From Minisyncoccota bacterium (GTDB lineage Bacteria > Patescibacteriota > Minisyncoccia > Phycocordibacterales > UBA2100), in the NCBI GenBank assembly GCA_035500505.1, contig DATJXE010000004.1, positions 126,977 through 190,976 on the forward strand: a stretch of 64,000 nucleotides of DNA, read 5' to 3'. The notes beneath the pieces were generated by a model. The model made no database searches, was not told where the DNA came from, and saw only the letters and a list, made by a program, of their open reading frames with translations. Below, in pieces: positions 15,395-61,556 of this stretch. The translations under genes and the position numbers were made by a program. How positions within the stretch are numbered: the first letter of the stretch is position 1; the number at the start of each line of letters is the position of its first letter.

Positions 15395-17584
15395 TTGTTT
15401 TGGCTCTTTATGCTAGGATTCCCAGATATGGAGCCATCCAAAGCGCCTGACGTATTCCTGAAGCCCTTCAACCCTGCCGAGCAGGAACTACGTATGCGCA
15501 CGCTCTGGGACGAGTACGGCTATGCCAATCCGGACGTCTGCGTTGAGAAAGGCATCACGAAAAAGGACGCGGAGAGTTACTCCATCGTCCTCCCCCCGCC
15601 CAACGTAACAGGGACTCTACATATGGGCCACGCGGCCATGCTCGCCATCGAAGACATCCTCATCCGCTACCATCGCATGCGCGATTACAAGACGCTGTGG
15701 GTCCCCGGCACCGACTCCGCTGCGATCGCAACACAGGCGAAAGTCGAGGACACTATTTACAAAAAAGAAAAGAAAACGCGGCACGACATCGGGCGCGAAG
15801 AACTGATGAAGCGCATCACGGAATTCACCGACGAGAGCAAATCGACCATCATCAACCAAGTGAAAATGATGGGCTCATCGCTCGACTGGTCGCGCTACGC
15901 CTACACGATGGACGACAAGCGCAATGCGGCTGTCACCGAAGCGTTCGTGCGCATGTACGAAATGGGACTCATCTATCGCGGCGACCGCATCGTCAACTGG
16001 GACCCAAAACTGCAGACGACCGTCTCCGACGACGAAATCGAGTACGTCGAGAAAAAAGACCCTTTCTACTATTTTCAGTACGGTCCGTTCGTGATAGGCA
16101 CGGTGCGCCCGGAAACCAAATTCGGCGACAAATACGTAGTGATGCATCCGGATGACAAACGGTACAAAGACTACCAACACGGGCAGACAATCGAACTCGA
16201 ATGGATAAACGGCCCCATCACCGCGACCGTCATCAAGGATGAAGCGGCGGATATGGAGACCGGTTCCGGGGTCATGACGATAACGCCCGCACACTCGGTC
16301 ATCGACTTCGACATCGCGCAGAAACACAAGCTCGACATCGAGCAAGTTATCGACGAGCGCGGCATCCTCCTCCCCATCGCCGGAGAATTCGCCGGACAGC
16401 ACATCAAGAAAGCTCGCGCGGCCATCGTCGAGAAATTACAGAAGAAAGGCCTCGTCGTGAAGATCGACGAGCACTACGTTCACAACGTGGCAACCAACAG
16501 CCGTGGCGGCGGCATCATCGAGCCGCAAATAAAGCGGCAGTGGTTCATTGCGGTGGACAAAAAAGTGAAGCTGCCGAACGGCGAGACGAAAACGATGAAG
16601 GAGCACATGCGCGAGGCCGTTGAGTCCGGAACGATACAGATACTGCCGCAACATTTCGAAAAAATATACTTCCATTGGACGGAGATATTGCGCGACTGGT
16701 GCATTTCGCGACAGATATGGTTCGGGCATCGCATCCCGGCGTGGTACAGGGGCGACGAAGTTCACGTCGGGCGCGAAGCGCCCAAGGGTGATGGGTGGGA
16801 ACAAGACCCGGACGTGCTCGACACCTGGTTTTCTTCGGGGCTTTGGACTTTTTCGACGCTCGGCTGGCCCGAAAACACTCCTGATCTGAAGACCTATCAC
16901 CCTACATCGGTACTTGAAACCGGTTACGACATCCTGTTCTTCTGGGTCGCGCGCATGGTGCTCATGACAGGCGCGCTTTTGGGCGATATCCCCTTCAAGA
17001 AGGTGTACTTGCACGGGCTCGTGCGCGACGGCCAGGGCCGCAAGATGTCGAAGTCGCTCGATAACATCATCGATCCGTTGGACATGATAGAAAAGTTCGG
17101 CGCCGACGCGACGCGCCTCTCGCTCATCATCGGCGCGTCGATCGGCAACGACCTGAAGCTCTCCGAAGACCGCGTGCGTGGCTACAAGCACTTCGCCAAC
17201 AAGGTCTGGAACATCGCACGGTTCGTTCTTGAAAATGTCGAGCAGGGTGAAATCAACGCCGCCGACCAGGAACTACTTCGCGAGGCGGAGCGCAAAGCGG
17301 CGGAGGTTTCGCAATACATCAACGAATTCCGGCTCGACCTTGCCGCCGATGCCGTCTACCACTTTGTTTGGCATCGGTTCGCGGATGAGATTCTCGAAGA
17401 GTCGAAACCTATCTTGAAAAACCACGATGCGGCAAGCCTCAGCCGCGCCGCCGCCCTGCATGAGATACTCCTGATATCATTGAAGCTACTGCACCCCTTC
17501 ATGCCCTTCGTTACTGAAGCGATCTGGCAAGAGCTGCCGCACAGGGAATCCGACCTTCTCATGGTCGCCAAGTGGCCGATATGA
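15395..17584 (+). CDS. valS: valine--tRNA ligase (short form, about 729 aa, no C-terminal coiled coil)
   Basis: HIGH (PNVTGTLHMGHA), KMSKS (KMSKSLDN), and DTWFSSGLWTFSTLGWPE block typical of ValRS; alternative start at 15428. Confidence 0.85.
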   Translation: MFWLFMLGFPDMEPSKAPDVFLKPFNPAEQELRMRTLWDEYGYANPDVCVEKGITKKDAESYSIVLPPPNVTGTLHMGHAAMLAIEDILIRYHRMRDYKTLWVPGTDSAAIATQAKVEDTIYKKEKKTRHDIGREELMKRITEFTDESKSTIINQVKMMGSSLDWSRYAYTMDDKRNAAVTEAFVRMYEMGLIYRGDRIVNWDPKLQTTVSDDEIEYVEKKDPFYYFQYGPFVIGTVRPETKFGDKYVVMHPDDKRYKDYQHGQTIELEWINGPITATVIKDEAADMETGSGVMTITPAHSVIDFDIAQKHKLDIEQVIDERGILLPIAGEFAGQHIKKARAAIVEKLQKKGLVVKIDEHYVHNVATNSRGGGIIEPQIKRQWFIAVDKKVKLPNGETKTMKEHMREAVESGTIQILPQHFEKIYFHWTEILRDWCISRQIWFGHRIPAWYRGDEVHVGREAPKGDGWEQDPDVLDTWFSSGLWTFSTLGWPENTPDLKTYHPTSVLETGYDILFFWVARMVLMTGALLGDIPFKKVYLHGLVRDGQGRKMSKSLDNIIDPLDMIEKFGADATRLSLIIGASIGNDLKLSEDRVRGYKHFANKVWNIARFVLENVEQGEINAADQELLREAERKAAEVSQYINEFRLDLAADAVYHFVWHRFADEILEESKPILKNHDAASLSRAAALHEILLISLKLLHPFMPFVTEAIWQELPHRESDLLMVAKWPI

Positions 17585-18276
17585 CAGAGACCGAACCAAC
17601 CGCCATCGCGCTTGCGATCGCCGCCGGCTTTTTCCCGGCGCTCGCGTGGTTGTGGTTCTGGCTGCGAGAGGATTCTGAACATCCGGAGCCGCGACGTCTC
17701 ATCGCGCTCGCGTTCTTGGGAGGCATGGTGATGGTTGCGGTCGTCATTCCCATCGAGGAATACGTACAAGGCTTCATCGTCTCGCAAGCGCTCCTTTTCA
17801 CCGCGTGGTCCACCATCGAAGAGGTCTGCAAGTACGTCTCCGCACGCGCGCTGGTGCTCTGGCGCCGCGACGACGATGAACCCATCGATCCGGTCATCTA
17901 CATGGTGGTCACCGCACTCGGGTTTTCCGCCGTTGAGAACGCACTATTCCTTTTCTCCCCGCTTGCCGGCGGCACGGTCCTTTCGACCATCCAGACGGGA
18001 GACTTGCGCTTTGTTGGGGCCACGCTCGTGCACGTCCTCGCCTCGGCAGTGGTCGGCGTCATGCTCGCCATCACCTTTTATGAGAGTAGAAAATGGGTCC
18101 GGCGGTTCGCCGTCTTCATCGGAGTTATCCTCGCGGCGCTTTTGCATAGCACCTTCAATTTCTTTATACTGAATGCGGGGTCAGAACAGACGCTCCTCGT
18201 GCTTACCTTCGTGTGGGCGGGCGTTATAGCCCTCTTGGCCGTTCTGGAGTGGGTCAAGCGGTTCCGACCTCGATAA
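17572..18276 (+). CDS. prsW: PrsW-family intramembrane metalloprotease
   Basis: EExxK (EEVCKYV), FxxxE (FSAVENALF) and HxxxxA (HVLASAVVG) motifs within a polytopic membrane protein; start overlaps valS stop. Confidence 0.7.
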   Translation: MADMTETEPTAIALAIAAGFFPALAWLWFWLREDSEHPEPRRLIALAFLGGMVMVAVVIPIEEYVQGFIVSQALLFTAWSTIEEVCKYVSARALVLWRRDDDEPIDPVIYMVVTALGFSAVENALFLFSPLAGGTVLSTIQTGDLRFVGATLVHVLASAVVGVMLAITFYESRKWVRRFAVFIGVILAALLHSTFNFFILNAGSEQTLLVLTFVWAGVIALLAVLEWVKRFRPR

Positions 18277-22224: not shown

Positions 22225-23295
22225 TTATCGCGACAATTTCCCTTTTGAGATCACGTGGAGGGCTCTCGTGTTGAGGTCGACCGTGCCCGCAAGGATCTGG
22301 AGCTTCTTCATGATCTTCGGCACGCGCTCGCGCAACACGCGCTCGCTCTCGCGCGCGAGGAACAGCGTTTTCTCTATCGCAACGCCCTGGTCGGCGCCGA
22401 TGGTGCGGAACGGGGCGCACAGGAGCAACAGCGCTCCGTCTTTTTCGGGGATGCGCTTCGCTTTCATGTTCCCGAGAACGATGTTCCCCGCAACCGCGAT
22501 GGCGTCCTCCCAACGCGGGTCGTACGGCCCGATGATGAGCGCACGATTCGGCACGTGGAGCCAGTCGAATCCTCGCCCGACCGCGATGATCTGCTCTTTG
22601 TGTTCCAGGTCAACGACCGGTGGCTTTTTCGCGCGTACTTCGGCAACATACTTCTGGTTGCCTTGGATGAGCGGTAGGAGGTCTTCGATGATGCGGTCGG
22701 GCATTTCGGGGTACATGTGCCGCAATTGGGTGTGGATGTTTTCGGCGCTCGCATCAATGTGTTCGGCAACGTCGAACGTCTGTGCGCCTTCGCTGTGGAA
22801 GATGAGTCCCCCCTCATCCGTTTCTATGCCGACGACGAGCGGAAACACGGCGATGTGGTTCCCGCCAAAAGCGAATTTGAATTGGTCGCGCAGCTTTTTC
22901 GCGCCCTTTTTCGCGGCGTTGGTGTCATATCCGTATCCCGCGCAGCCGCGGTGTTTATCTCCCTTCGAGAAATGGTAGGTCGAGAGCACGATGGTCGGGC
23001 GACCTTTGGAAACGGCATATTCGATATCTTCGAGCATGAGCCGGCCGAAAAAGGGCCAACCGAGGTCGAATTTGCCGCCGATGTTGCGGTAAGGCTTGAT
23101 GATGCCCTGCGGGGTGTTGGTCGTGAGTGCGAGGTTGAGCCTTCCGTCCATGCATTTCAGCGCAAGGATCTCGCTCGGGTGCTGGGCACGATACAAGCGC
23201 CGCGCGAGCTGAGCGCCCGGCGTGCAGAATTCGGCGCTCTGCTTTTTGTTGCGCTCCAAAATAAATTGCGTCAAATTTTGCCTCTTTTGAGCCAT
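22225..23295 (-). CDS. hypothetical protein with beta-carbonic-anhydrase-like CxDxR / HxxC motifs
   Basis: LKCMDGRLN (C-x-D-x-R) and HRGCAGYG (H-x-x-C) about 70 residues apart; ATG at 23295 preceded by A-rich region; ORF-track upstream extension rejected. Confidence 0.4.
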   Translation of the reverse strand: MAQKRQNLTQFILERNKKQSAEFCTPGAQLARRLYRAQHPSEILALKCMDGRLNLALTTNTPQGIIKPYRNIGGKFDLGWPFFGRLMLEDIEYAVSKGRPTIVLSTYHFSKGDKHRGCAGYGYDTNAAKKGAKKLRDQFKFAFGGNHIAVFPLVVGIETDEGGLIFHSEGAQTFDVAEHIDASAENIHTQLRHMYPEMPDRIIEDLLPLIQGNQKYVAEVRAKKPPVVDLEHKEQIIAVGRGFDWLHVPNRALIIGPYDPRWEDAIAVAGNIVLGNMKAKRIPEKDGALLLLCAPFRTIGADQGVAIEKTLFLARESERVLRERVPKIMKKLQILAGTVDLNTRALHVISKGKLSR

Positions 23296-23352
23296 GGTCC
23301 GCGATATCCTACTACACTGGAAAGCCCACGACAATATGGTATCCTCATCGGT

Positions 23353-23922
23353 ATGAAAACTTCTAACATCATTTGGGCGATTATCGTGGTCATCATTTTG
23401 GTCGGTGGCTGGTACATTTGGATGCAAAGTTCGGTGCCTGCACCGACTTCGAATACGAACGGTCCTTCGACCGCGCTCGGACTCAACGGCTCTCCCAACC
23501 AGGGCAACCTGGGCCAGCCCGACAACGGCCAGGTGCAGCAACCCTCCACTTCGACCTCCTCGACGGGCGATGGTTCCGCCATCAGCGACAACCTAACCCT
23601 CGGCGTCGACTCAAAAGCATCCGTCGGCACCTACCTCATCGCCTACAACGGCATGACGCTCTACACCTATTCGGGCGATTCTGCCGGAGTCTCCAACTGC
23701 ACCGGAAGCTGCGCCGTGAACTGGCCACCCTACACCGTGCCGGCCGGTATGCACCTCAACTTGCAGGCGGGCGTGACGGGAGCCGCGAGCACCATCACTC
23801 GCGCCGACGGCACCACCCAGGTGACCTACAAAGGCATGCCGCTCTACTTCTTCGTTGGTGACACAACCTCTGGCGCAGTGACCGGGGACGGTGAAGGAGG
23901 TTTTTCCGTAGCGAAACCCTAG
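23353..23922 (+). CDS. secreted lipoprotein-like protein with tandem Yx(FWY)xxD motifs (COG4315-like)
   Basis: N-terminal TM IIWAIIVVIILVGGWYIW; two copies of the motif (LYTYSGD, LYFFVGD). Confidence 0.65.
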   Translation: MKTSNIIWAIIVVIILVGGWYIWMQSSVPAPTSNTNGPSTALGLNGSPNQGNLGQPDNGQVQQPSTSTSSTGDGSAISDNLTLGVDSKASVGTYLIAYNGMTLYTYSGDSAGVSNCTGSCAVNWPPYTVPAGMHLNLQAGVTGAASTITRADGTTQVTYKGMPLYFFVGDTTSGAVTGDGEGGFSVAKP

Positions 23923-44941: not shown

Positions 44942-45871
44942 TTATTTCTTCTTCGACCCCTGTTCGCGTATCTTCGCAAGAGCCTTGATGGCCGGGATGA
45001 CTATTTTGTTGAGCGAGTCGTCGTAAAAGTTGAGGTCGCCGACGGCTGAAAGCGGGAACCACTGCGCGTCGTCGAGCCCTCCGGAACTTCCGAGGCGTAC
45101 CTCCGTGAACGGAGATTTCGCCAAGAAATAGGTGACGCGTTTTTTCTTTTTCCCGCCCTCGATCTTCGAATCATTGGCGACGTATTCGTTCACGCCAAGC
45201 TGTTCGACGATCTCGATATCAAGATTCATTTCTTCCTTTATTTCGCGGATCGCGCCCTGTTCGATATCCTCGCCGGGTTCGATCTTGCCCTTTGAAATGG
45301 TCCAATGCCCGAAAATATCGTGCACGAACGCGAGATAGTACTCGCCTTGGTTTTCCGCGTACACGACGGCTCCCGCAAGTTCTTCGAGCGGCATTTTCGA
45401 AGGCTTCTGGCTCTGCTGCTTGCGCGGCGTTCCGTCGGCCTTGCCCGGCTCGCCAAGCTCTATATACACGGCGCCCAGAACGCCATTGACGAAACGGCCG
45501 GAGGAATTGCTTCCGAACGTTTTGGCGAGCTCTATCGCCTCGTTTATGGCCACCTTGGCCGGCACCTGCGCTCGGTCGGCGTATAAAAGTTCCCCAAGTC
45601 CCAGCCGCAGGATATTGCGGTCGATGGCGGCGATCTTCTCGAGCGGCCATTCGGGCGCGGCGCGAACGATGACCTCGTCTATTTCTTTTTGTTTGGCGAG
45701 GATCATCTGGAGGAGCTGCTTCATGAACGGCATGTCGGAATCCCGAGCGCCGAATTCTTTGGAGTAATCGCTCAAGCGCCCGATGCATTCATCGAGCGAC
45801 ATGGTGCCGTTCTGGTCGCGCTCGAAAAGCACTTGAAGAACGATGGAACGCGCTAGGTGTCTGTTGGCCAT
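44942..45871 (-). CDS. nusB: NusB antitermination factor fused to a C-terminal NUDIX hydrolase domain
   Basis: N-terminal about 140 aa NusB-like (RHLARSIVLQVLFERD...NEAIELAKTFGSNSSGRFVNGVLGAV); C-terminal Nudix box GKIEPGEDIEQGAIREIKEEMNL (Gx5Ex7REUxEExGU). Confidence 0.75.
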   Translation of the reverse strand: MANRHLARSIVLQVLFERDQNGTMSLDECIGRLSDYSKEFGARDSDMPFMKQLLQMILAKQKEIDEVIVRAAPEWPLEKIAAIDRNILRLGLGELLYADRAQVPAKVAINEAIELAKTFGSNSSGRFVNGVLGAVYIELGEPGKADGTPRKQQSQKPSKMPLEELAGAVVYAENQGEYYLAFVHDIFGHWTISKGKIEPGEDIEQGAIREIKEEMNLDIEIVEQLGVNEYVANDSKIEGGKKKKRVTYFLAKSPFTEVRLGSSGGLDDAQWFPLSAVGDLNFYDDSLNKIVIPAIKALAKIREQGSKKK

Positions 45872-51939: not shown

Positions 51940-53244
51940 TTAGTTGCGCGAGATGACGATGCGCGGTGCGCCGCCACTGTTCGTGATGGACATCGAGTCG
52001 CTCGTCGGGCGGTCGAAGCCCATGACCGGAAGCGCTTCGATGGTCGAGACTTTCGACGGAGCTTCGATGCGCGTTTCAACGACCGGGGCAACTTTCTTTT
52101 CGATCGTCACCGGAGTGAACGTGCGGCGAGGGATCATCGAGCCCGCGAAGAGTGCCATGCCGCCTTTGTAGTAGACCAAGAGGTAGCCGGCAGCAACCGC
52201 GAAGACCGCGAGCATCAGCCAGTACATCGTGTCACCAAGCGTGCCGAGGTCGAAGCCCGTGTACGGTATCTGCGAGAGCGAGACCGACGGATAGGCGTTG
52301 CCGACCGAAACGTAGGTGTTGCACGTCGCGCTCTGGCCGTTGTAACCGTAGACCGTGAGCACATAGCTCGTCGAGCCGTACGGGTGGACGCTCAAGCTTC
52401 CGCTCGGAGCGACGTTGCCGTAGCTCGAGAGCGTCGCCGAGGTCGCGCCGTAGCTCTGCCAGCTGAGGTAGGTGTACTGACCGTTCTGGATGGAGTTGGG
52501 CGAGGCGTAGATGGAGCACGAGACGTTCTGGTAGTTGTAGTACGTCGGATAGGTGTAATTGTAGTTGTACGGGTAGGTGTACGTCGGGTAAGTGTATTGC
52601 ACCGGGTAGTAGGTCGTCGGGACCTGCGCGATCGGGATGACCGTGGTGGTCGTGTTGGTGTTGCCGCTGTTGCTGATGTTCGTGTTGCAGCTTCCGCCCG
52701 TGCAAGTGTTGTACGTCGAGTTCGAGATAGGCGTTACGATCTGTTGCTGCTGCTGCTGCTGCTGTTGCTGTTGCTGCTGCTGTTGGACGACCGGAGCAGA
52801 GTAATAGCTGCGCGGTGCCGAGATCGCGAATGGAGTGGAATAACCGATCGAGTAGTTGTAGGTCGGGATGGAGTAGTTGTTGTAGCCGTAGCCAGTGTCT
52901 CCGTAGATCGGGTAGGTCTCCTCAGAGTACGTTACGCCGCCTTCCTCGACGCAAGTGTCGCAGCCGCTAAAATCGAGATAACCGCCGTTGTCGCCTGAGA
53001 TGTCCGCATAGCCGCCGTTGTCGCCGGAGAAGTCCAAGTATCCGCCGTTGTCGCCGGAAGTATCCACGTAGCCGCCGTTGTCGCCGGAGAAATCGAGGTA
53101 GCCGCCGTTGTCGCCGGAGAAGTCGATATACCCGCCGTCATCCTGGGCGTGCGCAAAAAGCGGAAGGGCAAGAGCGAAGCCGGAAAGGACCAAAGCTCCC
53201 GTCAAGAGGATAGAAAAGGCTTTCAAATTTAGCTGTGCGGACAT
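51940..53244 (-). CDS. type I membrane-anchored surface protein: 6x DNGGYxDxSG decapeptide repeats, poly-Q tract, Y/N-rich segment, beta domain, C-terminal TM
   Basis: Signal peptide AFSILLTGALVLSGFALALPLFAHA; repeats and low-complexity segments seen directly; TM YWLMLAVFAVAAGYLLVYY near C-terminus. Confidence 0.6.
   Translation of the reverse strand: MSAQLNLKAFSILLTGALVLSGFALALPLFAHAQDDGGYIDFSGDNGGYLDFSGDNGGYVDTSGDNGGYLDFSGDNGGYADISGDNGGYLDFSGCDTCVEEGGVTYSEETYPIYGDTGYGYNNYSIPTYNYSIGYSTPFAISAPRSYYSAPVVQQQQQQQQQQQQQQQIVTPISNSTYNTCTGGSCNTNISNSGNTNTTTTVIPIAQVPTTYYPVQYTYPTYTYPYNYNYTYPTYYNYQNVSCSIYASPNSIQNGQYTYLSWQSYGATSATLSSYGNVAPSGSLSVHPYGSTSYVLTVYGYNGQSATCNTYVSVGNAYPSVSLSQIPYTGFDLGTLGDTMYWLMLAVFAVAAGYLLVYYKGGMALFAGSMIPRRTFTPVTIEKKVAPVVETRIEAPSKVSTIEALPVMGFDRPTSDSMSITNSGGAPRIVISRN
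52741..52785 (-). repeat. CTG/TTG (CAG/CAA in coding strand) trinucleotide tract of about 15 units encoding poly-glutamine
   Basis: ctgttgctgctgctgctgctgctgttgctgttgctgctgctgttg. Confidence 0.85.
52966..53145 (-). repeat. six tandem 30-nt in-frame repeats (GCCGCCGTTGTCGCCGGAGAAGTCNAGGTA-like) encoding DNGGYxDxSG
   Basis: Visible periodicity in DNA and protein. Confidence 0.8.
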
Positions 53245-53383
53245 ATGCGTGGTGGTTTACTTGTAAATTAGTAATGCTTTTGTAAGACGTGAGAATTATA
53301 CTTACATTTTTCCTTATGTCAAGTATTGAGAATTTCGGGGGACGGGCCTTTTTTAGTGGCCCGCCCCTCGGAGTTTGAAGCGT

Positions 53384-53800
53384 CTACTGGCGCCACGCTT
53401 CGATCGTGTCGGAGTGACGCGGCTGCGGTTGCGGCTGCGTCGACGCCGGCGCCGGGGCGTTCGCCGGCGAGTTGTCGGCGTGCGGCACATAGCCGCGATC
53501 GCACAAGACGTGGGTGCGATAGTCGCCGCGGAACTTCTGCTCGGCCGTCATCGCCATCTTGGGCCCGCCAGTCGTATTCTTGACCTTGACGAGCTTGATG
53601 GCGCGCATCGGGCAGACTTTGCCGAAGCCGGGCGTCATCATGTTGGCGGTGATGGGAGCGCCGTTCCAGTCGCCGCCGGTGATGGTCCAGGTCTGGCCTT
53701 CGAACTCGAAGGTGTTGTTGGGATTGGACTGCGCCTGGGCGGCGTTGGCGGCAGTGAGCGCGGCGATGCAGATCGCCGAAGTAAGGAGGAACTTTTTCAT
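53384..53800 (-). CDS. secreted hypothetical protein with signal peptide
   Basis: MKKFLLTSAICIAALTAANAAQAQ signal; Pro/Gln-rich C-terminus. Confidence 0.5.
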   Translation of the reverse strand: MKKFLLTSAICIAALTAANAAQAQSNPNNTFEFEGQTWTITGGDWNGAPITANMMTPGFGKVCPMRAIKLVKVKNTTGGPKMAMTAEQKFRGDYRTHVLCDRGYVPHADNSPANAPAPASTQPQPQPRHSDTIEAWRQ

Positions 53801-54011
53801 CGGATTTCCCTTTGCAAAGGTCCCTCGGCTCACATCGAAGCTGATGTGCGAGGGCTGTATGGGCGCGAATTCTCGTGCACAGACAGCCCTCGCAAAGTAG
53901 ACGTTGAATCAAAGAACAACGGTTGAAAGCCGAACCAGCAGATTAGGATAATCCCTTGGCTTTGGCTATTAACCGCGACATTATATCACCCACAACTAGA
54001 TTGTCAAGTAT

Positions 54012-54852: not shown

Positions 54853-55206
54853 TCAGGTTCGGGTTCGTCCGACGTGCTTGTTGCATATCCGACGAACCAG
54901 GCGAAAGGTACCGCCGATGCCAAGCATGATCAGCTTGACGGCGGCCACCGCTTCCGAAAAGAGTAATATCCGCTCGAAGTTGATGAACCTCGAGAATGTT
55001 TCGAAACGATCACCCCAATCCGGAGCGAACGTTTCGATCAGACTTCCGACGTGTTTGACCAGACCAAGATTGAGGTCCAGTCCATCGTTCAGCAATTTCG
55101 GCTTGAGGATAAATACAAGCACGAAACAAATTGCCGTAACAGTGAAGGCGCCCCCCTTGAAGAGGTGGTGCCTGCCTTGCTCCCACATGTATCGGTGCCA
55201 CCTCAT
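54853..55206 (-). CDS. membrane hypothetical protein (117 aa)
   Basis: Hydrophobic helices; immediately upstream of 54072..54809. Confidence 0.4.
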   Translation of the reverse strand: MRWHRYMWEQGRHHLFKGGAFTVTAICFVLVFILKPKLLNDGLDLNLGLVKHVGSLIETFAPDWGDRFETFSRFINFERILLFSEAVAAVKLIMLGIGGTFRLVRRICNKHVGRTRT

Positions 55207-58769: not shown

Positions 58770-58812
58770 AACAAAGAAGGCACGCCAAGTGGGCGCGCCT
58801 TCTTAGATTTCG
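58770..58812 (-). terminator. intrinsic terminator for 58828..59184
   Basis: Minus-strand GAAGGCGCGCC-CACTT-GGCGTGCCTTC followed by TTTGTTTTCTT. Confidence 0.45.
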
Positions 58813-58827
58813 GACAGCGCTTGCGGT

Positions 58828-59184
58828 TTAGGGACAGATCCCCTGGACACAAACGCCGTACACGCGACGCCAGTAATTCCGAATGATACGGGTGCCGTAG
58901 CCGACGATGCCGTGATGATGCTGGATCATGCCGGCGCCGTAATACGATTGGCCGCCGTAGTAACCACGCTGAGCCGGACCACGGTATCCCCCGCCGCAGT
59001 ATGACGGCATGGGCCACCGGCCTTTGTTGGTGACAGCGAAGGTCCGACAGAGTTCCGCAGCTTGGGAACTGCCTGGAATTACGCCGGCAATACACGTGTC
59101 GTCGTTGCAATATGCCGAAGCCGGAGCAGAGAACGAGAGCGCGATGAAAGTGACGAGAGCGAGAGTGCATGCGAATTTCCGCAT
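58828..59184 (-). CDS. secreted 8-Cys, Gly/Tyr-rich small protein
   Basis: Signal MRKFACTLALVTFIALSFSAPASA; mature part YCNDDTC...CRTF...YCGGGYRG...GYYGGQSYYG...HHHG...GVCVQGICP. Confidence 0.5.
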   Translation of the reverse strand: MRKFACTLALVTFIALSFSAPASAYCNDDTCIAGVIPGSSQAAELCRTFAVTNKGRWPMPSYCGGGYRGPAQRGYYGGQSYYGAGMIQHHHGIVGYGTRIIRNYWRRVYGVCVQGICP

Positions 59185-59279
59185 CGGTAGTTCCTCGTGT
59201 CTTGCCACGGTTCCCGGGATGGGAGCCGTTGCTTAGGCTGCCGAGATTATACCTTTACATCTTGCACTCGTCAAGTGCT

Positions 59280-59816
59280 TTAGTACTTCCCTATCTTCAC
59301 GGGTGTGCCGATATCGACGGGAACGCCGATGGTGGTCGCGTAGGCGATGGTCACGGGTTGCGCGATGGTGGTTGGATAGCCGATGGAAACCGGTTGGGCG
59401 ATCTGCACAGGCTGCGCGATGGTGACGGGTTGCGCGATCTGTTTTGCGACCGCGATCTGCTTTCCGACGCCAATCTGTTTCGGTTGGCCGATGGTGACCG
59501 GCTGCGCTATCTGTTTGGGTTGCGCGATGGTCTTCGGCTGCGCGATCTGCTTAGGGACCCCGATCTGGGTCGGCTCTGCAATGGGGACGGCGTAGCCGAG
59601 AGGTACCGCCGTTGCGATGGGGGTCGCTTCGGCGATAGGAGCGGCGTAGGCGATCGGAGATGCATAGGCGATGGGCGAAGCTTCCGCGATCGGGGAGGCG
59701 AAAGCGATCGGGACAGCGTTCGCGATGGAGCAGCCGCAATCTTGCGCGTACGTGAGTGAGGCGCTCGCGGCGACGGCGATGATGAGTCCAGCGGTTATTT
59801 TTGTTTTCATGTGCAT
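59280..59816 (-). CDS. secreted protein composed of about 24 tandem hexapeptide repeats (x-x-I-[AG]-x-[AP])
   Basis: Signal peptide LIIAVAASASLTYAQDCGC; repeats SPIAEA/SPIAYA/KQIAQP/VTIAQP etc. Confidence 0.6.
   Translation of the reverse strand: MHMKTKITAGLIIAVAASASLTYAQDCGCSIANAVPIAFASPIAEASPIAYASPIAYAAPIAEATPIATAVPLGYAVPIAEPTQIGVPKQIAQPKTIAQPKQIAQPVTIGQPKQIGVGKQIAVAKQIAQPVTIAQPVQIAQPVSIGYPTTIAQPVTIAYATTIGVPVDIGTPVKIGKY
59290..59720 (-). repeat. 18-nt tandem repeat array (GCGATNGGNNNNGCNTAN-like on plus strand) underlying the hexapeptide repeats
   Basis: Visible 18-nt periodicity with gcgatggtg/gcgatctg variants. Confidence 0.8.
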
Positions 59817-59818
59817 AT

Positions 59819-60475
59819 TTATTTTGAAACGACGCCGACGAAGTGCGCCGTGAGGATGAAGCGCGCGCTGGTGCCGGTGAGCGTGTCGCAGGTCACGAGC
59901 GTGAGCTTCTGGCCTTGTGTCGGAGAGAGGTCGATGGAAGCCCCCGTTTGCGTGTCGGCTTTGACGACGGAGTCAACGCTGTAGAGATAGGCCTTGCCGT
60001 TCTGTCCATCGATCTCGATGGAAGCGCCCGGGTCAACATTGGGAATTTGGTTGAACGCCTGGAACATTTTGTTGGTGACGATGGGCAAGTGCGAGGAGTG
60101 CGCGAAGATGAGCACGTTGCCTTGCACACCGAGCTCTGCCGAGCTGACGTAGCGCGCGGGACCTTTGTTGAGGAGTGCGTCGAGCGCGTCGACGTCGGTC
60201 GTCGAAGGATTTTGTACCGGCAGGTCGATACCGACGGACGGGATCTTTATCTCGGCCGGAAGCGTACCTGCGGACGTGCTGTCGGAAACTGATGTGTCGC
60301 CGAGCTGAGGCAGAGATGAAAGCGCGACCGAGGGATCGTTGCATGTGTTGTCTATTTGGCACGGCACGAAGCCAACGGAGTCGGCCGCGCTCAACGTGAG
60401 CGCGAACATGACGACCGAGGTCGCAAGGAAAACAGCGGCCGGGGGCTTGGAATTTCGCGTAGATTCGGGGTTCAT
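59819..60475 (-). CDS. sortase-family transpeptidase
   Basis: N-terminal TM; catalytic-region motifs VLIFAHSSH (His) and LTLVTCD (Cys, TLxTC) plus downstream Arg. Confidence 0.7.
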   Translation of the reverse strand: MNPESTRNSKPPAAVFLATSVVMFALTLSAADSVGFVPCQIDNTCNDPSVALSSLPQLGDTSVSDSTSAGTLPAEIKIPSVGIDLPVQNPSTTDVDALDALLNKGPARYVSSAELGVQGNVLIFAHSSHLPIVTNKMFQAFNQIPNVDPGASIEIDGQNGKAYLYSVDSVVKADTQTGASIDLSPTQGQKLTLVTCDTLTGTSARFILTAHFVGVVSK

Positions 60476-60524
60476 ACGATGGCAGAATAATACATGATTA
60501 TATGCATTATGTCAATAGCATGGC

Positions 60525-61556
60525 TTGACAACTGGCGGTATGCGTGAGAGGATTCTGGCCACTATGGCGGAGGTAGAAGTATCCAAGACAACGACCACCG
60601 AAACGCGCAACGAAGGCCGCACGTCCAGTCTCTTGACCGACATCCTCACTATCGTCGGTTTTGCCATCCTTTTCATCATCATCATTTGGGGCTTCGTGCA
60701 TCTCGTCTCGCTTATCTACACTTCCCTCTCTTCGAAGTTCTCCAATACGGCGCCTTCGATAGAGGTCACTGCGCCCGCGCAAGCAACATCGGGGCAGCCG
60801 ATGACCATCTCGTGGACCTATTCGCCGAGCGTGCAGGGCAGCTACGCATTTTTGTACCAATGCGAGAACGGTCTCTCGTTCGACACGAAAGGTGCGACCT
60901 CCAGCGTCGCCGTTCCCTGCGGCGAAGCGTATACGGTTGGCAACGTGAATAATTCCCTCACGCTCACGCCTCTGCTTTCGAGCGCTTCCACCGCGACCGA
61001 CACTGTTTCCATCGTCTTTATTCCGAGCGGGACCGGTTCACAGGCACAGGGCGACGCGACCGTCGCGATCAGCGCGGCAGCCAAATCTGCTCCCGCAAAA
61101 ACGACCCCGGCGAAAACGACTTCCTCGGCGACCTACACGGCTCCGCAATATTCCGGACCCACGGACCTCTCCGTGCGCATCATCTCCGGCAACGTGGACG
61201 CGAGCGGTGCGGGTGTCGTTACGTTCGACATTGCCAACATCGGCGGCTCCGCTTCTGGCAGCTACTACTTCACGGCCCAGCTGCCGACCGCGCAGCCCTA
61301 CCCTTACCAATCGCCGCTCCAAGCCTCGCTTGAACCGGGCGGGCACGTGACGAGCACGCTTCGCTTCACCAGCGTACAATCCGGCGGCGGCACGTTCTCC
61401 GTCAGTATCCAAACGAACGACGCCAACAACGCCGACAACTACGCCTCGATGCAGCTCACCGCGCCGTACAACTACAACAACTATAATTACAACTACAGCT
61501 ACCCGTACAACTACCAATCTTCGCCGTACATCGTGTACCCGACGTATACGTACTAA
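60525..61556 (+). CDS. N-terminally anchored surface protein with two beta domains and an Asn/Tyr-rich C-terminus
   Basis: TM ILTIVGFAILFIIIIWGFVHLV; domain PMTISWTYSP...AFLYQC similar to the 51940..53244 protein; tail YNYNNYNYNYSYPYNYQSSPYIVYPTYTY. Confidence 0.5.
   Translation: MTTGGMRERILATMAEVEVSKTTTTETRNEGRTSSLLTDILTIVGFAILFIIIIWGFVHLVSLIYTSLSSKFSNTAPSIEVTAPAQATSGQPMTISWTYSPSVQGSYAFLYQCENGLSFDTKGATSSVAVPCGEAYTVGNVNNSLTLTPLLSSASTATDTVSIVFIPSGTGSQAQGDATVAISAAAKSAPAKTTPAKTTSSATYTAPQYSGPTDLSVRIISGNVDASGAGVVTFDIANIGGSASGSYYFTAQLPTAQPYPYQSPLQASLEPGGHVTSTLRFTSVQSGGGTFSVSIQTNDANNADNYASMQLTAPYNYNNYNYNYSYPYNYQSSPYIVYPTYTY

Follow-up and report, generated by a model that had tools for sequence, protein, structure and literature searches.

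The window, a stretch of 64,000 nucleotides, comes from a Kaiserbacteria-type MAG of Candidatus Paceibacterota, an uncultured, ultra-small CPR bacterium. NCBI proteins HTR18983-HTR18986 belong to this MAG. Most CPR/Patescibacteria have not been cultured; they are ultra-small symbionts, and little is known of their envelope and of the machinery with which they attach to hosts. Towards one end of the window lies a sortase gene, accompanied by genes for a hexapeptide-repeat protein, a Cys-rich peptide and, on the opposite strand, an N-anchored protein (Table 1). All four open reading frames were found where the initial annotation had placed them. No peptidoglycan genes were seen in the window.

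Table 1. Positions of the sortase module and of the predicted substrate in the window
Feature	Position	Strand	Remarks
Predicted sortase substrate, 434 aa	51940..53244	-	Signal peptide, 5 x GDNGGYxDFS, Q15, Tyr/Asn-rich spacer
Hydrophobic TM segment TMYWLMLAVFAVAAGYLLVYY, then K	52168..52230	-	Mean Kyte-Doolittle 2.1 over 17 residues
IPYTG sorting motif (predicted)	52255..52269	-	Invariant in 41 locus copies
Promoter-like site TTGACA-16-TATAAT, perfect sigma70-type	53295..53322	-	Upstream of IPYTG gene; consensus match only
Terminator-like hairpin	58774..58804	-	3' of Cys-rich gene; parts sortase unit from downstream genes
Cys/Gly/Tyr-rich small secreted protein, 118 aa	58828..59184	-	NCBI start ATG 59184; earlier 126-aa reading from GTG at 59208
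Hexapeptide-repeat secreted protein, 178 aa	59280..59816	-	Signal peptide, DCGC, 24 x (x-I-(A/G)-x-(P/A)-x), end KIGKY
Sortase, 218 aa	59819..60475	-	N-terminal TM helix ~13-33, variable linker, catalytic domain
Substrate-like motif VALSSLPQLG	60299..60328	-	Residues 50-59, TM-to-domain linker of sortase
Promoter-like site TTGACA-17-TATTAT, 11/12	60487..60515	-	Upstream of sortase-repeat gene pair; consensus match only
Divergent N-anchored protein, 330 aa	60564..61556	+	TM, beta-rich domain 1, CARDB-like domain 2, Asn/Tyr/Pro tail ending Y

The sortase is genuine, as had been proposed from its TLVTCD and VLIFAHSSH motifs: both are present, and the protein matches Pfam PF04203 at 63.3 bits (cut-off 26.6, E 2.3e-17) over profile positions 1-124 of 125. 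When aligned with 23 homologues at 58-88% identity (alignment A1), H126, H129, C196 of TLVTCD and R205 proved invariant, confirming the catalytic triad, and the regions around Cys and Arg can be aligned to those of B. anthracis SrtA. NCBI names the protein 'sortase [Candidatus Paceibacterota]'. Its AF2 model (pLDDT 69) shows a helix at residues 13-33 and a beta-barrel; the catalytic domain is mostly at pLDDT 70-89, and blocks 132-141 and 171-190 fall to 56-62. Foldseek with this model returned about 50 sortase structures at probability 1.00 and E 2e-9 to 6e-8, with classes E, A and C all matching at E ~1e-9 and hence not separated, while profile matches in the PDB included B. anthracis SrtA (2kw8, E 3.6e-8) and S. 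avermitilis sortase E. The subclass assignment by HMM that had been suggested gave no class, as the protein lies below every NCBIfam class cut-off: class E 37 bits against 160, class F 28 against 166, class C 25 against 160, class GN 20.7 against 158 and the generic TIGR01076 31.5 against 39.35. The sequence also lacks the marks of class C, having no DP[WFY] lid and no C-terminal TM and ending with the catalytic domain. The gene product belongs to a lineage-specific sortase clade; it is anchored in the membrane and of housekeeping type, has the H/C/R triad and the sortase fold, and lies outside the curated classes A-F.

The repeat gene begins 2 nt after the sortase stop codon, and the two genes are predicted to be co-transcribed. 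After the signal peptide, residues 35-178 of its product comprise exactly the 24 hexapeptides that had been counted, in consecutive units of I-(A/G)-x-(P/A)-(V/K/T/A)-x that fit the tandem pattern [LIV]-[GAED]-x2-[STAV]-x. Self-identity reaches 0.49 at period 6 versus 0.02-0.07 at periods 3, 5 and 7, and TRF finds DNA arrays with periods of 18, 36 and 54 nt in the gene. Matches to left-handed beta-helix (LbH) models stay below threshold (NeuD, E 3.5e-8 and 33 bits against 160; LpxD; LpxA), with LbH_EIF2B at 19 bits against a cut-off of 54. A PDB sequence search returned only LpxD at E 0.18, and the homology search gave just one weak match owing to composition bias. The structural prediction proposed earlier, a single-sequence AF2 model, has a pLDDT of 47, its strands being short, confined to the C-terminal third and spaced 6 or 12 residues apart. 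The protein is probably beta-solenoid-like, of the left-handed beta-helix type. It shares with LpxA, LpxD and NeuD the tandem hexapeptides, the weak matches to LbH-region HMMs and the strand spacing. Unlike the LbH acyltransferases, however, it is secreted and consists of repeats only, has an N-terminal CxC and lacks catalytic and flanking domains, and its HMM scores lie far under the cut-offs. The likeness looks like convergent periodicity.

The Cys-rich protein had been described as an eight-cysteine peptide; the 126-aa reading contains seven cysteines, six of them in the mature part. Its gene has promoter-like and terminator-like sites of its own. No homologue was detectable in 68 genome loci, and in close relatives its place is taken by a different small secreted protein rich in Cys and Gly. 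It appears to be a fast-evolving small secreted protein, and we dropped it as a core component since its sequence is not conserved past the closest genomes. For the divergent protein, the N-anchored architecture described earlier (TM, domains 1 and 2, Asn/Tyr tail) stands, and its start is more likely the ATG at 60564, which is both the NCBI call and the start of the homologues. Of 69 loci, 61 encode it, with few exceptions in head-to-head orientation to the sortase gene. All 116 homologues are 'hypothetical' and several carry PF07705 (CARDB), which matches 10 of 30 aligned homologues (best E 2.2e-9) and gives no match to the window copy at E<=0.01. Domain 2 of the homologues bears a VDPxNxVxESNExNN-type signature, degenerate in the window copy as QTNDANNADN. 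A PDB profile search with the family found nothing, and the combination of N-terminal TM, novel domain, CARDB and Tyr-rich tail matches no annotated family. The predicted product is an N-anchored CARDB-type surface protein whose role we infer. As had been noted, none of the three neighbours (3/3) ends in a motif followed by a TM segment and a basic C-terminus, and these three are most probably not the donor substrates of the sortase.

The initial annotation had left the substrate unknown, supposing either a non-canonical motif or a polymer of the repeat protein. This no longer holds, as an LPxTG-type candidate lies 6.6 kb downstream of the sortase on the same strand, the open reading frames between the two giving zero Pfam or NCBIfam matches. 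Beyond the spacer, this protein continues with an Ig-like Cys-Cys domain, VSLSQIPYTG, a hydrophobic helix of 21 residues, a Lys and a tail of ~75 aa ending APRIVISRN. The first scans for C-terminal signals required a motif within the last 55-60 residues and missed it because ~104 aa follow the motif; it was found via tblastn with the short-tailed proteins of two related loci, L066 and L032. Inspection alone revealed the motif and the architecture; neither the 434-aa protein nor its C-terminal 117 aa gave any Pfam or NCBIfam match to the LPXTG-anchor models (PF00746/TIGR01167), even at E<=1. IPYTG occurs in 148 of the 150 best cluster representatives, and the signal region is common to 389 protein clusters. 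Its surroundings are conserved too, with VSLSQ upstream, FDFGxxGN downstream and the TM sequence beyond, and in most of these proteins the part after the motif is long (median 109 residues) and closes with a conserved APRIVIxR. We found no IPYTG sorting motif in the literature and no substrate or motif described for the Kaiserbacteria lineage. Another open reading frame with a C-terminal TM and basic end (17572-18276, RFRPR) was rejected as a substrate, being a polytopic PrsW protease. Peptides proposed for a sortase assay are Abz-VSLSQIPYTGFD-Dnp and VALSSLPQLGDT.

Across relatives, the signal is linked to the sortase. Forty copies of [LI]PYTG were found in 36 of 67 loci, all on the sortase strand, the furthest upstream 250 bp and the furthest downstream 7.8 kb from the sortase; by our estimate, about one chance match to the pentapeptide would be expected in an equal amount of six-frame sequence. 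Downstream flank of 7.5 kb or more was available for 35 Kaiserbacteria loci; 27 of them encode an [LI]PYTG+TM protein and eight have no IPYTG gene nearby. Because gyrB, PheRS and ProRS are conserved neighbours as well, part of this synteny is plain collinearity within one lineage. In eight loci with rearranged neighbourhoods (L017, L021-L024, L047, L049 and L067), the IPYTG gene lies directly upstream of the sortase, ending ~15-120 bp before its start. The motif was also seen in at least three C-terminal contexts, including short-tailed canonical signals in L032 (LPYTG + 32 aa) and L066 (IPYTG + 39 aa, RRNR).

The sortase itself carries a motif that resembles this signal. Within its otherwise variable linker, L55, P56 and G59 of VALSSLPQLG are invariant in alignment A1, and an LP[EQ]LG-type motif is present in 57 of 68 sortases, being degenerate or lost in about 7-9. 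With a PSSM built from the substrates, the best match was the linker site in ~52 of 66 sortases, and the tail p was <1e-3 for 47 of 57 best matches within the linker window. The resemblance suggests that VALSxLP[EQ]LG probably serves as a mimic of the substrate in cis, occupying the active site or shielding it. In the AF2 model the linker has pLDDT <50 and no confident placement, so that docking in the active site is not visible. The N-terminal appendage of B. anthracis and S. mutans SrtA and the lid of class C are likewise segments able to contact or shield the active site (PMC7586933), and the linker is similarly placed N-terminal to the catalytic domain. Unlike the DP[WFY] lid or a helix, however, it resembles the substrate (VALSxLP[EQ]LG versus VSLSQIPYTG). 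The motif may also be cut itself, as self-processing, because SpSrtA recognises LPKLG (PMC7586933). No 'pseudosubstrate' sortase was found in the literature.

The module as a whole is best seen as an ordinary system for anchoring proteins at the cell surface, in a form specific to its lineage. We consider it rather likely, from motif, architecture and linkage, that the donor substrates of the sortase are Sec-exported surface proteins with V-S-L-S-Q-[I/L]-P-Y-T-G, a TM segment and K/R, here the 434-aa protein. The steps, which we infer from sortase biochemistry, would begin with a substrate whose C-terminal helix keeps it in the membrane. Cys196 would then attack the Thr-Gly bond of IPYTG, and an envelope amine, most likely of a peptidoglycan precursor, would resolve the acyl-enzyme. 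The ectodomain would thereby end up covalently on the cell surface, leaving behind the TM segment and the conserved cytoplasmic tail. So long a conserved tail is atypical for cell-wall sorting signals, and the IPYTG proteins could be intact bitopic membrane proteins. If so, IPYTG would be no sorting signal but a conserved juxtamembrane motif in a protein family whose cytoplasmic tail is functional, and the true sortase substrates would lie elsewhere in the genome. The APRIVIxR tail, the silence of the LPXTG-anchor HMMs and the conservation of FDFGxxGN and of the TM sequence, as expected of one orthologous family, are in keeping with this. However, [LI]PYTG sits on unrelated C-terminal contexts, including the short tails of L032, L066, L049 and an SRGGAR subgroup, it relocates along with the sortase, and the sortase linker mimics exactly [LI]PYTG and the V-[SA]-L-S before it. 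We therefore regard the juxtamembrane explanation as unlikely.

Other explanations turn on the immediate neighbours, above all on the repeat protein, whose functional tie to the sortase may be real. Hexapeptide-repeat proteins fill the position after the sortase in ~40 of 71 loci, and the tight pair is kept also in lineages with an otherwise rearranged neighbourhood. In some repeat variants xPTG strings are found, SVPTGY and SYPTGS among them, as might suit a sortase that acts on its neighbours through a non-canonical motif and polymerises or anchors the repeat protein as a fibre or pilus. The spacing of Pro and Gly in these strings is, however, unlike that of LPxTG, and the ~40 orthologous repeat proteins have no C-terminal hydrophobic anchor, no conserved C-terminal motif and no sorting signal, ending in KIGKY, PVGR, TFAK, GSH, YPSY and others. 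About 25 loci have a sortase with no adjoining repeat gene, many of them still with IPYTG proteins. The pilus or fibre envisaged in the initial annotation also sits poorly with the missing class C features of the sortase, and the IPYTG ectodomain contains 0 Lys, which argues against pilin-type polymerisation. That the neighbours are polymerised or anchored in this way thus seems most improbable. A different possibility is that the repeat or CARDB protein is the acceptor, so that the IPYT-carboxyl would be joined to a scaffold amine instead of, or besides, peptidoglycan, with the N-terminal CxC/CxxC stapling the scaffold into oligomers. The co-transcription of sortase and repeat gene, the head-to-head CARDB gene, a CxC/CxxC that in many repeat orthologues falls on the predicted signal-peptide cleavage site or a few residues from it, and a Lys-containing KIGKY end conserved in the close clade would all fit. 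Against it, a C-terminal Lys is not conserved across the family, many members closing with R, Y or H, the repeat gene is missing beside many sortases, the repeat-protein model is of low pLDDT, and adjacency may reflect only co-expressed envelope genes; a protein acceptor is on balance distinctly unlikely. Very unlikely, too, is a more elaborate version, in which a sortase gated by its in-cis LP[EQ]LG, acting as a pseudo-substrate, would use a disulfide-stapled beta-solenoid scaffold, not peptidoglycan, as the acceptor for IPYTG proteins, while the leftover TM and APRIVIxR tail would signal, the whole forming a dedicated Kaiserbacteria sortase-repeat-CARDB surface-building module.

The favoured anchoring of IPYTG proteins has its closest parallels in the class A (S. 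aureus and B. anthracis SrtA) and class E (Streptomyces SrtE) systems. These share with the present module the N-terminal membrane anchor, the beta-barrel, the His-Cys-Arg triad and TLxTC, and a substrate made up of signal peptide, [L/I]PxTG, hydrophobic helix and basic residue; the best PDB sequence matches of the sortase are 2kw8 (BaSrtA) and 5go6/5go5 (SrtE). The present system differs in that the sortase lies under all NCBIfam class cut-offs, class E being the best, in that the motif is fixed as IPYTG with VSLSQ before and FDFG after it, in the ~100 residues and the C-terminal APRIVIxR that follow it in most substrates, and in its CPR host. It resembles sortase-dependent pili (class C with LPXTG pilins) in the placement of the sortase gene amid genes for secreted surface proteins. 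Unlike those, however, it has no class C signature and no pilin with a sorting signal plus a Lys nucleophile, nor does the repeat protein carry a sorting signal.

To conclude, the puzzle of a sortase without a substrate has an ordinary answer. Sortases are enriched in CPR/Patescibacteria (PMC6744442), and the literature on CPR sortases mentions them only as a family. A sortase with a fixed IPYTG motif could be modestly useful for orthogonal protein ligation. Two features stand out, a sortase linker that mimics the substrate and a conserved cytoplasmic tail on the predicted substrates. The Kaiserbacteria sortase and VSLSQIPYTG form a concrete, testable pair of enzyme and motif, and, because 389 protein clusters share the IPYTG signal region, the signal gives a means to list the anchored surface proteins of Kaiserbacteria.

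The enzyme at the centre of this cell-surface module is a sortase, in line with the initial annotation as a sortase-like transpeptidase. It scored 63 bits against Pfam Sortase (cut-off 26.6 bits), the His/Cys/Arg triad (H126/H129, C196 in TLVTCD, and R205) was invariant in an alignment of 23 homologues, and the AF2 model (mean pLDDT 69; catalytic domain mostly 70-89) matched sortase structures in Foldseek at E about 1e-9. The protein is 100% identical to the NCBI entry 'sortase [Candidatus Paceibacterota bacterium]', and almost all of its relatives come from Kaiserbacteria/Paceibacterota MAGs. No subclass was reached by HMM, as the sortase fell below every curated class cut-off (E, 37 bits vs 160; F, 28 vs 166; C, 25 vs 160), and the structure search could not tell classes E, A and C apart; by sequence, its best matches in the PDB were SrtA of B. 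anthracis and sortase E of S. avermitilis. Just outside the TM helix lies a Cys pair, C39 and C45 (GFVPC-x5-C), both present in 11 loci, the first only in 6 and neither in 47. The second was never found without the first among relatives, a pattern that partly fits a disulfide formed in some family members only.

The substrate of this sortase had been considered unknown, but an LPxTG-type candidate with IPYTG, a hydrophobic helix and Lys is encoded elsewhere in the window, the kind of find that the initial annotation had set as refuting its reading. Scans that demand a motif close to the extreme C-terminus miss this candidate. We fetched 68 genome loci, each encoding a relative of the sortase, and in two of these, L032 and L066, proteins just downstream of the sortase carry textbook sorting signals (LPYTG plus 32 residues, and IPYTG plus 39 residues with RRNR, respectively). 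Of 67 loci, 36 contained [LI]PYTG with a TM helix behind it, in 40 copies altogether. All 40 copies were on the sortase strand, from 250 bp upstream to 7.8 kb downstream. Among the 35 loci with a downstream flank of 7.5 kb or more, 27 had the signal. Synteny in this single lineage is weak evidence alone, because gyrB, PheRS and ProRS are neighbours of the sortase that are conserved to the same degree. In eight loci with a rearranged neighbourhood (L017, L021-L024, L047, L049 and L067), the IPYTG gene ends ~15-120 bp before the sortase start. The signal logo across loci reads P-Y-V-S-L-S-Q-I-P-Y-T-G-F-D-F-G. In a full-library HMMER search, the 62-residue signal region matched 389 cluster representatives, with IPYTG in 148 of the best 150. 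The [LI]PYTG signal is linked with the sortase across its relatives.

From its N-terminus, the predicted substrate comprises a signal peptide, decapeptide repeats, a Gln run, a Tyr/Asn-rich spacer, an Ig-like domain with a Cys at either end, VSLSQIPYTGFDLG, a 21-residue hydrophobic helix, Lys and ~75 further residues. Its ectodomain holds 42 Tyr and no Lys, and therefore no pilin-type acceptor role is possible. Comparable yet different acidic/Tyr repeats (SDYSVPDSS, DSGGGG) occur in its relatives. Promoter-like sites are enriched around the gene (12 found vs 4.9 expected), including two perfect TTGACA-16-TATAAT (sigma70-type) sites. A small ORF nearby encodes one of several proteins of ~100-117 aa with hydrophobic segments at both termini and the motif GYGSK.E.ALRLFGADKAFLF.EV.A.VKL; such proteins, for which no family match was found, are also encoded between sortase and IPYTG genes in L072 (8246-8542), L011, L020 and L055. 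Two further ORFs of the window have unusual domain content (see table).

Feature coordinates (window positions unless a locus is named)
Feature	Position	Strand	Remarks
Sortase	59819-60475	-	Pfam Sortase match; N-terminal TM helix
Linker block VALSSLPQLG (residues 50-59)	60299-60328	-	resembles substrate signal VSLSQIPYTG
Sortase Cys pair	60341-60361	-	
Repeat protein	59280-59816	-	signal peptide, DCGC, exactly 24 hexapeptides
Cys-rich ORF, 118 aa	58828-59184	-	NCBI start, ATG at 59184
Slot after repeat gene, Cys/Gly-rich proteins	L070 11269-11703; L072 7653-8117; window 58828-59184		
Divergent anchored protein, 330 aa	60564-61556	+	most likely start 60564
Predicted substrate, 434 aa	51940-53244	-	homologue found with L032 and L066 proteins as queries
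15-Gln run of substrate	52741-52785	-	
Five GDNGGYxDFS repeats of substrate	52966-53115	-	
Conserved C-terminus of substrate	51943-51969	-	whole tail 51940-52167
Promoter-like site	53295-53322	-	upstream of IPYTG gene
Second promoter-like site	53980-54007	-	before ORF 53319-53912
Small ORF	54853-55206	-	
438-aa ORF	22225-23541	-	weak Pfam CsoSCA_cat match (carboxysome shell carbonic anhydrase, catalytic domain), E 5e-6, 26.5 bits vs cut-off 21.5; unexpected in a CPR genome
NusB-NUDIX ORF	44942-45871	-	N-terminal NusB domain and C-terminal NUDIX hydrolase domain in one ORF

The IPYTG protein could alternatively be bitopic and remain intact, with IPYTG as a juxtamembrane motif. Such a role would suit the long stretch after the motif (median 109 residues in IPYTG proteins, vs about 30-40) with its conserved extreme C-terminus (T.DSM....SG.APRIVI.R in 126 homologues), as well as the silence of the Pfam and NCBIfam LPXTG-anchor models on this signal; nor did we find IPYTG mentioned as a sorting motif in the literature searched. 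However, [LI]PYTG is also found on unrelated short-tailed C-termini, it relocates together with the sortase, and the linker of the sortase itself mimics the signal. If IPYTG is a cleavage site, the conserved tail suggests that the fragment left after putative sortase cleavage has a function in the cytoplasm.

The linker between the TM helix and the catalytic domain is variable except for a conserved V-A-L-S-x-L-P-[E/Q]-L-G, of which L55, P56 and G59 were invariant in the 23-sequence alignment. An LPxLG-type motif was present in 57 of 68 sortases and was degenerate or lost in a minority. A PSSM of 14 positions, built from substrates only, was run on 66 sortases and had its best match at this block in about 52 of them. 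Among 57 best matches in the linker window, the background tail probability was <1e-3 in 47 and <1e-4 in 30, the chance level for such a best-of-~215-positions search being roughly 5e-3. The relative P0081 has LPQTG at this site, and in L032 the linker reads LSISQLPTTT while the adjoining substrate has SLTQLPYTG. We favour an in-cis substrate mimic because of two precedents: an N-terminal appendage shields the active site of B. anthracis SrtA, and S. pyogenes SrtA accepts LPKLG (PMC7586933). As AF2 was not confident for the linker segment, this role is inferred; real self-processing of the sortase at the block is a possible alternative.

All four ORFs of the module are real, with revised starts for the Cys-rich and the divergent anchored protein, and the 24 hexapeptides of the secreted repeat protein stand as first described (period-6 identity 0.49). 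The repeat gene starts 2 nt after the sortase stop, a promoter-like site lies upstream of the pair, and of 71 loci about 40 have a secreted hexapeptide-repeat protein directly after the sortase, a lower bound as several loci are N-masked where repeat-rich genes are expected. N runs beside or near sortase or IPYTG genes (L042, L053, L060, L062, L068) fall where the hexapeptide-repeat gene, or the repeats at the N-terminus of an IPYTG protein, would be expected. The pair is kept where the remaining neighbourhood is rearranged, which argues more for an operon than for simple collinearity. The repeat consensus differs by lineage (xIAQPV, PVxIGY, SVPTGY, SYPTGS, PGYPSx), and in many repeat proteins a CxC or CxxC motif coincides with the predicted signal-peptide cleavage site or lies at most a few residues from it. 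None in the ~40 loci carries a sorting signal, and therefore they are not donor substrates, which leaves the earlier idea of a repeat-built fibre without positive support. The repeats match the left-handed beta-helix (LbH) consensus, with all LbH model matches sub-threshold; AF2 gave a poor model (pLDDT 47) with short strands at 6-/12-residue spacing in its C-terminal third. A beta-solenoid-like fold would be plausible.

The Cys-rich protein has 7 Cys, not the 8 initially counted, with 6 in the mature part, and its gene has promoter-like and terminator-like sites of its own. The closest genomes already carry different small secreted Cys/Gly-rich proteins in its place. Those of L070, L072 and the window have a common signal peptide, SF[ST]APASA, and an RRVY-type C-terminal stretch is common to the window and L070, the remainder being unalignable; judged by these sequences, the proteins of this slot seem to form a secreted family that evolves very fast. 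The gene of the divergent anchored protein is conserved in 61 of 69 loci, where it stands head-to-head with the sortase gene; the protein has a CARDB-like domain 2 and a Tyr/Pro-rich C-terminal tail. As annotated, none of the three neighbours combines a motif, a TM helix and a basic C-terminus. The repeat and CARDB proteins are putative co-expressed envelope components; a role of either as acceptor or scaffold is possible, though unlikely.

The puzzle of a substrate-less sortase is resolved, and the IPYTG system is a variant of a known one, not a new kind. We consider it reasonably likely that a lineage-specific housekeeping sortase would cleave surface proteins between Thr and Gly of IPYTG, whereupon these Tyr-rich Ig-domain proteins would become attached to the envelope. 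The acceptor for the IPYT end would probably be peptidoglycan, because envelopes of CPR, a group of ultra-small and mostly uncultured bacteria, are thought to be Gram-positive-like (PMC6744442); no mur/pbp genes were seen within the 64-kb window. Three features merit modest follow-up: the IPYTG signal and the long conserved tail that comes with it, the mimicking linker, and the pairing of sortase and repeat genes.
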